From: an uncultured Pseudomonadota bacterium
Lineage (GTDB): Bacteria > Pseudomonadota > Alphaproteobacteria > Rs-D84
Assembly (NCBI GenBank): GCA_949283535.1
Contig: CASDTC010000004.1
Span: 4,579-68,578, forward strand
Length of the DNA: 64,000 nt
Direction of reading: 5' to 3'
Made by a program: the position numbers and the translations under genes. The notes beneath the pieces were generated by a model. The model was not told where the DNA came from. It ran no database searches and saw only the letters and a list, made by a program, of their open reading frames with translations. Position 1 is the stretch's first letter. Each line of letters opens with the position of its first letter. Below, piece after piece: positions 42,975-49,741 of this stretch.

Positions 42975-43026
42975 GACTACTGCGCCTGCGTTCCACTGCG
43001 TGTCGCCAGTTTTTTATCAATGAATT

Positions 43027-43111
43027 TGGTGCGGGTACAGAGATTTGAACTCTGATGGGTTGCCCCACTGGAACCTAAATCCAGCGCGTCTGCCAGTTTC
43101 GCCATACCCGC
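43027..43111 (-). tRNA. tRNA-Leu (TAG)
   Basis: Anticodon loop TTTAGGT, long variable arm GGGGCAACCC, A73, CCA encoded. 85 nt. Confidence 0.85.
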
Positions 43112-43267
43112 AATATGTACAACTTTTTGCTCTGCGTCCCGGCGGCACTTCGCTGTCGTCCGTCGCCGCCATACCCGCAAGTAGGATATTATATTATGAT
43201 AAAAAAGACTTGATTTCCAGTTATTTTTACAATAAAATCCAACGCAGAATAAATAAAAGGTTTAAAA

Positions 43268-43447
43268 ATGGCGTCTAAGAAAGGCAATAAAGAAGTCGTA
43301 AAGCTGGAAAATAAAGAAACTGGCTATTTTTATACGACAACAAAAAATACAAAGTCTGAAAATACCGCAGGCAAAATGAAGTTTCGCAAATATGATCCGA
43401 AACTGCGCAAGCATGTCGTTATGACCGAAGGTAAAATGCCTCACTAA
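43268..43447 (+). CDS. rpmG: 50S ribosomal protein L33
   Basis: 59 aa MASKKGNKEVVKLENKETGYFYTTTKNTKSENTAGKMKFRKYDPKLRKHVVMTEGKMPH. Missed by the ORF track because it is shorter than 60 aa. Terminator downstream. Confidence 0.8.
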   Translation: MASKKGNKEVVKLENKETGYFYTTTKNTKSENTAGKMKFRKYDPKLRKHVVMTEGKMPH

Positions 43448-43520
43448 TTTCGGATTATTTTATATATTTTAACGGGCGTTAATACGCCCGTTATTTTTAT
43501 ATTTATTATAATCGCCTTTT

Positions 43521-44819
43521 TTACTTTTTATCCGCAATTGCGCCGAATGCCATATCCATTTGTACGCCATTGTCGACACCGGTTTCTGTAAATTGAACGG
43601 TACCTGTTGCCTCGGTCGGGGTGGTGGATGGTCCATAATACCCAACATTCATATTTGCACCATTCGCAGTAATAACGCCGTCATCATTTGCTGTGGTCGC
43701 CAATTGCATATCAATATATGTGCCACCATCGTTATTATTTTTGTAATCTGTAAATGATATTGCACCAGTACTGTCCACAACCACATCATACCAATTATTG
43801 AAATTTGCATTCAGTGTTGATGTTTGCGATTGCGTATCAAATGTCAATTTTGTTGGGCGGGCTGTATCTTGTTGCAATTGAACTATATGGGCGCCTTTTG
43901 CCACGCGACCCGTGGCACGACCAGTAAATGTCATGTCAGAATCAATATCAGCAACGGCAATTTTCTTGTCATCATATCCGCCGGCAAATGGCATCAAGAA
44001 TTCATCCACCCGTTGATCGCCATCCATTGATGATATTATATTAATCAAACCAAAATCAGAATATGACAATCCCATTTGTTTGGCATCTGAAACATAATCC
44101 AATTCTAAAACCCGTCCGTTTTCAATATCAGAACCATAAAATGTACGGCTGTCCCCCAGTTTTGCCAAATCCACATCGCCAGAATCGCGGGTTAATGTCA
44201 TTCCAATGATTTCACCAGTATCATCAATTTTAAATTTCATTTTATAACCGTTCGTGGCGGTCAATGTGGCATTATCCACCGTTAATACGGTTGTGTTTTC
44301 AATCAATTCTGTGCGTGATGTATCAAATATTGCGGCATTATCATTGCGCCAATTTACAATGCATTCGGCGGTTGCCGCCCCATCAGATGCATTATAACAC
44401 TTTGCCGCCAATGATCGATTCAGTACCGCCATCGCCGCCCATAACATGTTTTTATCACTGTTATATGCAGACTGAATTTGCGCGGCATCTGCCGTGGTGA
44501 TTTCATTTGATAAACTGGCAACATCCATATAAGACGCAAACGGAATTTGTTCAAAACCAGATGGGTTGAATCCCTTTAATTTAAAGCCAATCCAATCTGT
44601 AACCTGGGCTTCATTTCTGGAATACATCCCTGTGATAATTGCATTATTATCCGTGGCATCATTTGAATATTCCGGGGTTTGAATTGGCGGTTGGTATGTT
44701 GGACGATCCTTGTACGGATTATATTGTACAGACCCACTGCCCGATTCCAGGCATCCGGTTAACATACCTGATACTACAATCAATGATGTGATAAATGATA
44801 TTCGTGCCATGGATTTCAC
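43521..44819 (-). CDS. surface lipoprotein with TbpB/fHbp-like C-terminal beta-barrel (putative Slam substrate)
   Basis: Lipobox LTGC. C-terminus NMNVGYYGPSTTPTEATGTVQFTETGVDNGVQMDMAFGA has the lipoprotein_5-type ending. Confidence 0.55.
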   Translation of the reverse strand: MKSMARISFITSLIVVSGMLTGCLESGSGSVQYNPYKDRPTYQPPIQTPEYSNDATDNNAIITGMYSRNEAQVTDWIGFKLKGFNPSGFEQIPFASYMDVASLSNEITTADAAQIQSAYNSDKNMLWAAMAVLNRSLAAKCYNASDGAATAECIVNWRNDNAAIFDTSRTELIENTTVLTVDNATLTATNGYKMKFKIDDTGEIIGMTLTRDSGDVDLAKLGDSRTFYGSDIENGRVLELDYVSDAKQMGLSYSDFGLINIISSMDGDQRVDEFLMPFAGGYDDKKIAVADIDSDMTFTGRATGRVAKGAHIVQLQQDTARPTKLTFDTQSQTSTLNANFNNWYDVVVDSTGAISFTDYKNNNDGGTYIDMQLATTANDDGVITANGANMNVGYYGPSTTPTEATGTVQFTETGVDNGVQMDMAFGAIADKK

Positions 44820-44939
44820 CTTTCCGTTATTTTTATATTACAAAGGTCATGATTTTTATTCAAGGTGTTTTTGCACTTGAATGATTTTTCTAATCCCAAT
44901 ATAATAATGTTAAGTATTCTGGGGCAAAAGGAGAAACAC

Positions 44940-46112
44940 ATGAAAAAAATGTCGTTATTGGTTTTGCTGGGGCTGTTGACCGCGTGCAATGATGGGGGTA
45001 CGCCATCGGGGGCATATGGTCGCCCAACAGATATGCGCCCCGGACGCAATCCATTTGTTAATACAGCCAAAGAATCAAATGCACAGATTACTGGGATGAT
45101 TTCTTCGAATGCCACCCAGGTTGCCAGTTATATGGATTACAGGCTGAACGGTTATACCGGCACAAAAACACCGGAACATTATGCTGATGTTGCAGAATTG
45201 GCAATAAACCTGGCAACGATGAATACTGATGAAATTGAAAATCAATTTACAGAAAATAAGGATATATTGTTCCAGGCAATGTATGTATTAAATCATAACC
45301 TGGGGACATGTGCGGGGGACACGGGGGCGATTGTTGCCGAATGCATAAACACATGGCGAAACGCAAACCAGGGCGCAATAAACGCGTCAATAAACAGTTT
45401 GCGTGCAAATGGTGAATTGTTAAGTATTAATGATGCAGAATTCATTTCCCCAGATGCCAGTTTAACATTTTCAATAAATGAATCTGGGGAAATAATGGGA
45501 ATAACCATTGATAATGGTGAAACGCAAAATGTATTTAATCGAAATGGTGATATATTTGTAAATAATACAGAAACACTGTCATACAATTCTGGGGCGGGCA
45601 GTAATCTGGTCTTGTCGTATTCTGATTTTGGAATATACACAATTACAAATAATGCCGACACATCTAAAATCACATACGCACCATTTGCCGGTGGGTATGC
45701 ATCAAAGCAAATCGCCGTTGCAAATATTGAAAAAGATATGACATTTTCTGGGCGCGCGGTCGGCACAGCGTCCAAGGGTGATGACAGCATAAATCTGGAT
45801 GGGACGGCAACATTAAACTTTAAAACAGGCGACAATCCAACATCTGAATTAATGGCGAATTTTGATAATTGGTACACTGTAAATATAACGCAGGCTGGTG
45901 ATGCACCAAATGCAAATTTTGTATTTTCTGGTAATCCAACAGAAACAGATGTTATATTAACAAATACAACCGGTACAGGGACAATGAATGTCGGATATTA
46001 TGGTCCAGACGGTACCCCGACCGAGGCAACAGGGCTGGCACAATTTACTGAATCAGGTGTCGAAAATGGTGTTAAATTTGATATGGCGTTTGGCGTCAAT
46101 AACAAGCAATAA
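44940..46112 (+). CDS. surface lipoprotein paralog (TbpB-like C-terminal barrel)
   Basis: Lipobox LTAC. Same C-terminal block MNVGYYGPDGTPTEATGLAQFTESGVENGVKFDMAFGV. Divergent from its paralog. Confidence 0.55.
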   Translation: MKKMSLLVLLGLLTACNDGGTPSGAYGRPTDMRPGRNPFVNTAKESNAQITGMISSNATQVASYMDYRLNGYTGTKTPEHYADVAELAINLATMNTDEIENQFTENKDILFQAMYVLNHNLGTCAGDTGAIVAECINTWRNANQGAINASINSLRANGELLSINDAEFISPDASLTFSINESGEIMGITIDNGETQNVFNRNGDIFVNNTETLSYNSGAGSNLVLSYSDFGIYTITNNADTSKITYAPFAGGYASKQIAVANIEKDMTFSGRAVGTASKGDDSINLDGTATLNFKTGDNPTSELMANFDNWYTVNITQAGDAPNANFVFSGNPTETDVILTNTTGTGTMNVGYYGPDGTPTEATGLAQFTESGVENGVKFDMAFGVNNKQ

Positions 46113-47483
46113 TTGAAAAAATTCAGCATAATATTTTTAATGTTTTGCATTCTGCCCGGGGGAACTTGGGCAGAATCTGCATCTGGGGTAAAAACGGTCA
46201 AAAATTCAGACGGTTCAACAGAAATTACGATGTCTGTACTGGATGCCATAAAAATGGCGGGCGCAATGGTTGATAATGGCGAATTGGATACCGCACAGCA
46301 AATTTTAAAAAATATGCCACATTTAAGTGGTGCAATGGGTATTGAACAACAATTTTTGCTGGGGCGCATTGCCGGATACCGTGGGGAATTTGATACCGCA
46401 ATAAAAATATATCGTAATATTTTAGATGCATACCCTGATTTAGCGCGCGTGCGTTTTGAATTGGCAATTTGTTATATGCACGCCAAACAATGGTATCGCG
46501 CAGATTATCAATTACGATTAGCAATGGCGGGACGTGATTTGCCAGAAAATGTTCGTCAAATGATGAACTATTACCGATATGTAATTCGACAAAATAAAAA
46601 CTGGAATGTATTTTTTAATTTTGGTGCCGCACCAGATAATAACATCAATAATGCAACTGGTGGCACAGAATGCGTTATGACGATTTTTGGTCCAATGTGT
46701 CGGAATCTGATTGAACCAGAATCTGCGGTCGGATACAACCTGACACTGGGTGGGGATTATGAATTCAGGTTATCTGACCAATGGCGATGGAAATCTGATG
46801 CGGGACTGTATTCAAACTTTTATGATTTACACGAATACGATGATATATATCTGTATGCCAGCACTGGTCCACGATATATCTGGTCGCGCGGGGATGTTTG
46901 GTTGGCGGCAACTGCGGCACGACGCTGGTATGGCTGGGATGGATACAATTGGACCGCAGGCGCGCGGTTAAATGCAAATTACGATTTTACACGAAAATTA
47001 TCAGGTGGGGTATCTTTGCAATATGGTCGAAATATTTATGATAATTTCGGTGAATATTTAAATGGCGACACATATTCCACCAGCGCACAAGTTTTTTATT
47101 CAATAACCCCAAATATTTATACCATATTGCGTGGTGGTATTTTACGCGAAAACGCGGCATCAGATACATATTCATATTGGCAACCCAGTATCAGCATTGG
47201 TGTTGGCGCCGAATTACCATACGGATTTGGTGTTTATTTGCAACCGGCGTTTTATTGGCAAAATTATGATGCCCCGCAATGGTCGGTGCAAGATGGAAAA
47301 TTTTCGCAAATTGTCGAACGCGATTTTTCCCAGCGTTATTCAGTGTCTGTATCAAATAATAAATTCAGTATAATGGGATTTGTTCCAACATTAATATTCA
47401 GTTATACCCGCCGTGATTCAAATATGTGGCAACGCGAATATGATAAATGGTCTGTGGAAATTACATTACAACAGCGGTTTTAA
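46113..47483 (+). CDS. Slam-like outer membrane protein (periplasmic TPR domain + DUF560 barrel)
   Basis: Signal peptide, TPR region, about 280-aa beta-rich C-terminus ending ...ITLQQRF. Directly abuts the SLP gene. Start is TTG as in the ORF track. Confidence 0.6.
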   Translation: MKKFSIIFLMFCILPGGTWAESASGVKTVKNSDGSTEITMSVLDAIKMAGAMVDNGELDTAQQILKNMPHLSGAMGIEQQFLLGRIAGYRGEFDTAIKIYRNILDAYPDLARVRFELAICYMHAKQWYRADYQLRLAMAGRDLPENVRQMMNYYRYVIRQNKNWNVFFNFGAAPDNNINNATGGTECVMTIFGPMCRNLIEPESAVGYNLTLGGDYEFRLSDQWRWKSDAGLYSNFYDLHEYDDIYLYASTGPRYIWSRGDVWLAATAARRWYGWDGYNWTAGARLNANYDFTRKLSGGVSLQYGRNIYDNFGEYLNGDTYSTSAQVFYSITPNIYTILRGGILRENAASDTYSYWQPSISIGVGAELPYGFGVYLQPAFYWQNYDAPQWSVQDGKFSQIVERDFSQRYSVSVSNNKFSIMGFVPTLIFSYTRRDSNMWQREYDKWSVEITLQQRF

Positions 47484-47486
47484 TAA

Positions 47487-47515
47487 AAAATTCCCGAATT
47501 GGGAATTTTTTATTT
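47487..47515. terminator. bidirectional hairpin terminator
   Basis: aaaaaattcccgaattgggaattttttattt serves both the Slam gene and the convergent parC. Confidence 0.5.
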
Positions 47516-49741
47516 ACCAAACTTTCCACTGCGTGGGAATCCAACCGGTACAGTTCGACCCTGGGACGCACGATGCCCCGTCCATGGCGCCCAATCATCC
47601 AATTTTGTTGTTCCGCGTCCAGTTGTCCACCCAAAACCGTCAGACGCGTTAAAGAACATTACATCCAAAACATATGTGCGTTCCGCATTATATTTTTGCA
47701 GGATAACACCCTTGCCCCGGGTCATTTCGGGTATTTCAGATGTTGGGAATATTAATAATTTATCGTTTGAACCAGACATGGCAACCGTATCACCCGTAAC
47801 AGGCACACACATTATTGCTGGATTACGCGCATCGGTATTCATAACCTGTTTACCAGAACGCGTTTGCGCCAAACAGTTTTCACCCGATACAATAAAACCA
47901 GTTCCATGCCGCCCAACCAGTAAATATTTTACCGATGTATCCAGTACGAATGCCGATATAATATTTTCATCTGCGCCAATGTCAACCATCATTCGCACCG
48001 ATTCCCCAAATCCACGCGCAGATGGCAAATCGTTTGCCGCAATTGTGAACATTTTACCACCACTGGCAAATAAATTAATTTTATCGGTCGACATCGCATG
48101 AAATGCAAATTGCAGCGCATCGCCTTCTTTGAATTTCAAATCCAGCGATGATAAATCCAGATGACCCTTGGCTGCACGAATCCAACCCATTGCAGACAGA
48201 ATTATTGTCATGGGTTCTTTTTCAATAAATTCATCTGTATTAACAACAATTTCCGCGGTCTGCGGTATCCATTGGGTGCGGCGACGTCCCAATGTTGTCT
48301 TTTTATCATAACGCTTTTTAATATCAGCAAACCATGCCTTTAATTGTTCATTTTGACGTTCGGGGCTGGTCAATAATTCATTTAATTCTTTCTGTTCCGC
48401 CAGTAATGCAGCATCTTCGCGACGAATTTCCATTTCTTCCAGTTTGCGCAACGAACGCAGGCGGGTGTTTAAAATCGCCTCTACCTGAATATCTGTTAAA
48501 TTAAATTCTGCAATCAAAACGGACTTTGGATCGTCTTCATTACGGATAATTTCAATTACACGATCCAGATTCAGATAAACAATTAACAATCCGCCCAAAA
48601 TTTCCAGACGGCGTGCGATATTTCCCAATCGCCAATTTGTGCGGCGCACCAATACATTTTTCTGGTGTGCAATAAATTCACGCAAAACATCACCAATGCC
48701 CATGACCCGCGGAACACCACGCGAATCAATCACATTGAAATTCATATTGAATTTATATTCTAAATCCGTCATCGCAAACAAATGCGCCATCATTTTGTCT
48801 GCGGGGACATTACGGCTTTTTGGGGTGATAACAATGCGAACATCTGTGGTTGATTCATCAGATATATCATCAACCAATGGCAATTTTTTTGTGTCAATCA
48901 TACTGGCAATTTGTTCCACCAGCTTTGATTTTATCAAACCATATGGAATTTCGGTTATAACAACCTGCTCTGCCCCACGGTCCAGCTTTTCTATTTCCCA
49001 TTTTGCACGAATTCTGAATGCGCCGCGCCCCGTATCATAATTCTTTACAATTGTATCAAAAGAATCAATTAAAACCCCACCAGTTGGGAAATCAGGTCCA
49101 ACCAACTTTTTCATAATCTGGGCAGTTGTTGCGTTTGGATTATCCACAACCAGGGTCAATGCATCACAAACCTCTGCCACATTATGGGTTGGAATATTCG
49201 TTGCCATACCAACCGCGATTCCCATGCCGCCATTTGCCAATAAATTTGGGAATGCCCCCGGCATAACAACCGGTTCAACGGTTGTGCCATCAAAATTTGG
49301 CATCATGTCAACACTGTCTTCGTCAATACCATCCATAATTAACATGGCGGCATCGGTCATCTTGGATTCTGTATAACGATACGCCGCCTGGGGGTCGCCA
49401 TCGATATTACCAAAATTACCCTGGCCATCAATTAAAGGATAACGAACAGAAAAATCCTGGGCCAGACGAACCATGGCATCATATACAGAAGAATCCCCGT
49501 GCGGGTGATAATGCCCCAACACATCGCCAACAACCGTTGCACATTTGCGAAATGCGGCATTTGGTGATAATTTTTGGCGCAACATGGAATACAAAATACG
49601 GCGATGCACCGGTTTCAGTCCATCGCGAACATCTGGCAATGCACGGGATACAATTGTGCTGACCGCATATGACAGGTATCGTTCAGACAATGCGTCTGAT
49701 AACTGTTGTGAATCAATTCTTTCGATAATTTCTTTACTCAT
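47510..49741 (-). CDS. parC: DNA topoisomerase IV subunit A
   Basis: [10 protein letters not shown]..., active-site region [19 protein letters not shown]. 743 aa, short and without a GyrA-box, so ParC is preferred over GyrA. Confidence 0.75.

Follow-up and report, generated by a model that had tools for sequence, protein, structure and literature searches.

Introduction

The question raised by this locus is whether an uncultured gut alphaproteobacterium displays lipoproteins on its surface through a Slam translocon (type 11 secretion system, T11SS), and what such proteins would do there. Slam/T11SS cargo proteins are the main vaccine antigens and the nutrient-capture or immune-evasion factors of several pathogens, and to our knowledge the characterised examples come almost entirely from Beta- and Gammaproteobacteria. 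The window analysed here is a stretch of 64,000 nucleotides from contig CASDTC010000004.1 (assembly GCA_949283535.1). It comes from Candidatus Enterousia / order Rs-D84, a group of gut Alphaproteobacteria whose genomes measure ~0.75-1 Mb; for Rs-D84, a life as an obligate symbiont or parasite without standard transporters has been predicted (PMC12306168). The reading that we consider quite probable is that of a type 11 secretion (Slam) locus whose surface cargo, LipA and LipB, carries a ligand-binding helical effector and swaps modules.

Locus layout and translocon

All three open reading frames of the first-pass annotation were found at the coordinates in Table 1, and lipB, whose strand had not been given, is encoded on the minus strand, head-to-head with lipA. 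The lipA stop codon (TAA, 46110-46112) is followed at the next base by the TTG of slam, so the two genes directly abut, as had been claimed; this junction makes co-transcription of lipA and slam, with translational coupling, probable.

Table 1 Features of the locus, in positions of the window
Feature	Position	Strand	Protein residues	Detail
Terminator-like perfect palindrome	43470..43493	.		10-bp stem, TAACGGGCGT-TAAT-ACGCCCGTTA; pattern match
lipB, paralog of lipA	43521..44819	-	432 aa	lipobox LTGC; divergent from lipA
Divergent intergenic region	44820..44939	.		120 bp
Promoter-like site TTGAAT-17-TATAAT	44877-44905	+		consensus match, 10/12 positions
lipA, predicted Slam-dependent surface lipoprotein	44940..46112	+	390 aa	
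lipA lipobox			Cys16	LTAC
lipA disordered tether			17-41	
lipA helical effector	45063-45413		42-158	
lipA beta handle	45435-45698		166-253	
lipA 8-strand barrel	45738-46100		267-387	
Inverted DNA repeat arm	45984..46095	+		112 nt; 78% complementary to 43541-43652
Slam / T11SS outer-membrane translocon	46113..47483	+	456 aa	
Slam signal peptide			1-20	
Slam TPR region	46251-46517		~47-135	
SlipAM/DUF560 barrel domain of Slam	46602-47480		164-456	

The 456-aa protein had been read as a Slam (TPR plus DUF560), and the DUF560 profile search bore this out: Pfam PF04575 (SlipAM) matched at E=1.7e-36 with 126.7 bits (cut-off 22), and the barrel domain covered profile positions 1-288 of 288. In the N-terminal part, TPR_19 (33.7 bits, cut-off 25) and TPR_14 (25.0 bits, cut-off 23.5) were above threshold, the dedicated TPR_Slam model scored slightly short of its cut-off (33.4 against 35.2 bits), and precomputed PF24575 matches are present on Slam orthologs. 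The protein ends in ...LQQRF, with a terminal Phe (aromatic, typical of outer-membrane barrels), and its N-terminus (MKKFSIIFLMFCILPGGTWA, followed by E) is a signal peptide by inspection. That reading needs the TTG start, which is kept in seven of eight orthologs; public gene calls start 27 nt further on, at an ATG, and yield a protein of 447 aa. The orthologs (12 genome loci) are 56-91% identical and carry the NCBI name 'surface lipoprotein assembly modifier', and Slams are on record in all proteobacterial classes (PMC5449769); the translocon is therefore not new in itself.

The promoter-like site is the best match within 43000-47700 and lies in the divergent intergenic region, as does the GGAG ribosome-binding site of lipA, and the palindrome lies 28 nt past the lipB stop. 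Little weight is given to these patterns, as the number of promoter and terminator matches around the locus is not above shuffled expectation. A search for phase-variation repeats found none, with no long homopolymers at the 5' ends. A weak 19-nt tandem repeat inside slam was the sole tandem repeat found.

Predicted lipoprotein cargo

LipA starts with MKKMSLLVLLGLLTAC and has the lipobox LLTAC, and the N-terminal part of LipB runs ...VVSGMLTGC; from the ATG at 44810 used in public gene calls (e.g. L020), LipB is 429 aa. All 60 family members in family alignment A1 have the lipobox Cys, and LipB fits this alignment, sharing that invariant Cys along with the motifs PFAGGY and YYGP..E..G..FG. The description of lipB as a divergent paralog with the same ending was upheld, since LipA and LipB are 38% identical end to end (E=1e-69) and both carry the C-terminal motif MNVGYYGP..TPTEATG..QFTE.GV.NGV..DMAFG; the LipB ortholog in a related genome (L001) is 93% identical. 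Judged at the level of sequence, the Slam match, the lipoboxes, the paralogy and the shared motif are far beyond chance.

An AlphaFold2 model of LipA (pLDDT 87.4; residues 1-36 below 50, a flexible tether) contained the handle and the C-terminal soluble 8-strand barrel that the first-pass annotation had expected of the cargo. The effector is a compact, all-helical domain of ~115 residues with a conserved Cys pair (Cys124-Cys135), and it resembles neither heme or transferrin binders nor any solved structure. Mean pairwise identity in the family rises from the helical domain (0.376) through the handle (0.484) and the barrel (0.503) to the last two strands, LipA residues 344-387, with the C-terminal motif (0.605), the best-conserved part, a gradient expected of a targeting barrel plus a variable effector.

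The same annotation had called the ending TbpB-type, a likeness that holds for fold and motif and fails for profiles: the TbpB_B_D (PF01298), HphA_C (PF22829) and fHbp/GNA1870 profiles matched none of the 60 members (Pfam, E<=10). Known-SLP matches were likewise absent from Pfam and NCBIfam searches of full-length LipA and LipB, and Pfam searches of barrel-only fragments gave nothing. Searches of PDB sequences with phmmer and with the family profile, barrel-only queries included, returned no Slam-dependent surface lipoprotein (SLP), and when the family profile was compared with one fHbp sequence by hhalign, the lipobox alone aligned. Among 88 distant relatives there was weak bridging, with one HphA_C match at 8e-5 and one TbpB_B_D match at 2e-3. 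The family forms 439 clusters at 50% identity, is without annotation and almost wholly metagenomic, and the only two NCBI entries seen for it are both named 'hypothetical protein'. Overall, the Slam/T11SS locus is judged genuine, and its predicted cargo family new and unannotated.

Synteny in related genomes

In 12 of 19 species-level related genomes, slam is directly preceded by one or more lipoprotein genes. At four related loci (L011, L015, L016 and L019) the lipoprotein genes occupy the same parC-ohy slot, and neither a Slam gene nor a remnant of one is nearby, so the adjacency is not obligatory. The lipoproteins might be ordinary periplasm-facing outer-membrane lipoproteins, their position beside Slam being historical and Slam having other cargo or none. 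We regard this as highly improbable: the handle-plus-barrel has only Slam cargo as top matches in two independent fold searches, the C-terminal strands are the most conserved part of the proteins, and the cargo-then-Slam order, with stop and start abutting or nearly so, is kept down to a Slam identity of 56% and a lipoprotein identity of 30-45%, and also in distant family members with other N-terminal domains (4/4 informative contigs).

Slam1 and Slam2 of Neisseria with TbpB, LbpB, fHbp and HpuA (Hooda 2016/2017) offer the closest comparison in layout: a TPR-DUF560 gene adjoins its lipoprotein cargo, one Slam may stand beside more than one cargo gene, the cargo is variable and mosaic, and the cargo shares with LipA (for which the fold is predicted) a lipobox, a flexible tether, a handle and a C-terminal 8-strand barrel. 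The present barrel differs in going undetected by the TbpB_B_D, fHbp and HphA_C profiles, the effector is helical where theirs is either a second lobe or a binding site rich in beta structure, the genes scanned nearby include no TonB-dependent partner receptor, and the host is a ~0.9-Mb uncultured gut alphaproteobacterium instead of a mucosal pathogen. A survey of T11SS cargo (10.1101/2024.09.26.615229) followed the same logic of DUF560 co-occurrence and AlphaFold and described the same three-region plan of effector, pedestal and 8-strand barrel, including classes with alpha-helical effectors; it began with Pfam-detectable barrels in UniProt genomes, whereas the LipA/LipB family goes unmatched in Pfam and so extends the set for predicting T11SS cargo by a profile-negative barrel family. 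Pasteurella multocida PmSLP (fIbp), which binds complement factor I, has no sequence similarity to LipA or LipB, and nothing here points to factor I.

Proposed mechanism and ligand

With the Slam1 reconstitution, in which unfolded TbpB carries a C-terminal specificity motif (PMC9090332), and the effector-pedestal-barrel scheme (10.1101/2024.09.26.615229) as templates, LipA and LipB would be exported by Sec, lipidated at the lipobox Cys and transported to the outer membrane, where the conserved C-terminal barrel would serve as the recognition element for Slam and the cargo would pass unfolded through the DUF560 barrel. The predicted surface product is a barrel and handle on a flexible tether of ~25 residues, with the variable, disulfide-containing helical domain facing outward as a putative ligand-binding effector. 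As the organism lacks most biosynthesis and standard transporters, the role of this effector is most likely to bind a molecule or surface that belongs to the animal host or to a partner microbe.

A different ligand is assumed if LipA and LipB scavenge heme or a metal in the manner of hemophilin or TbpB, being displayed or released by Slam and passing the nutrient to an outer-membrane receptor. This is distinctly unlikely, since the invariant lipobox marks LipA and LipB as anchored proteins and not free hemophores, the effector is all-helical, unlike heme or transferrin binders, and the lineage has neither a respiratory chain nor a TCA cycle (PMC12306168). The scan of genes around the locus also showed no TonB-dependent receptor, TonB, heme oxygenase or other heme gene. 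The flanking genes scanned held no informative partner gene hinting at a ligand; skp was not found directly after bamA, where a VirB8-like ORF stands.

The retention of a complete translocon-cargo unit in a genome of <1 Mb stripped of most metabolism and transporters argues for a central role of these predicted surface proteins in the way Candidatus Enterousia lives off a host or neighbours. With no domain-database match and an effector without structural relatives, the cargo family offers a handle on the partner or ligand of an uncultured gut lineage.

Evolutionary rate, mosaicism and inversion

The lipoprotein genes are mosaics at the level of domains and have changed much faster than the genes around them: within a given strain pair, their dN was 1.6-16 times as high as the dN of parC (the yibB row was excluded from the dN/dS comparison). 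Gene-wide positive selection was not found in the lipoproteins (dN/dS 0.08-0.31), so that of the antigenic diversification proposed in the first-pass annotation, fast evolution and domain mosaicism stand and gene-wide positive selection does not.

Helical, handle and barrel modules have been exchanged between the paralogs, with an inversion in at least one strain pair. In that pair (L028 versus L029) the inversion is accompanied by a barrel swap at the handle/barrel junction. A single simple reciprocal inversion was considered and rejected: beyond the breakpoint, the barrel of the left gene of L028 is still A-type for at least 83 residues, and at least two events (conversion plus inversion) are therefore needed. 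The mosaics and the inversion could instead be metagenome-assembly chimeras, the two genes being simply old divergent paralogs. Every related sequence is metagenomic, strain mixtures are common in such samples, and the L028 contig terminates within the repeated barrel, all of which would suit this explanation. It is nevertheless unlikely, as the class with a B-like handle and an A-like barrel recurs across different samples, in ~30 separate clusters at 90% and on contigs of up to 856 kb, the breakpoint falls where the handle meets the barrel, just past the invariant PFAGGY motif, and the paralogs are ~77% identical across the 78-nt junction, which is too low for k-mer mis-joins.

Exchange between the paralogs also has a possible DNA substrate in the inverted repeat of Table 1, which in both paralogs codes for the two final, conserved barrel strands; at the equivalent place in L028 the inverted repeat is at least 248 nt long and 93% matched. 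Tentatively, and with some doubt, the head-to-head lipoprotein genes may form a recombination cassette that re-assorts modules at PFAGGY and YYGP..EATG and so varies the surface molecule by which the symbiont attaches or feeds, the effector being a new ligand-binding fold that sets the partner specificity of Rs-D84. If so, a ~0.9-Mb obligate symbiont or parasite would vary the molecule that it uses for attaching to, or feeding from, its host or partner cell.

Segment-mosaic, modular architecture is known from meningococcal fHbp and TbpB, where, as here, surface lipoprotein variants are recombined blocks of differing history. The present case differs in that whole structural domains swap between two head-to-head paralogs at one locus and that at least one event also inverted the intervening segment. 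One effector occurs on two barrels that are merely 50% identical, and the domain swapping for this reason offers a natural experiment for locating the part of the cargo that is recognised by Slam.

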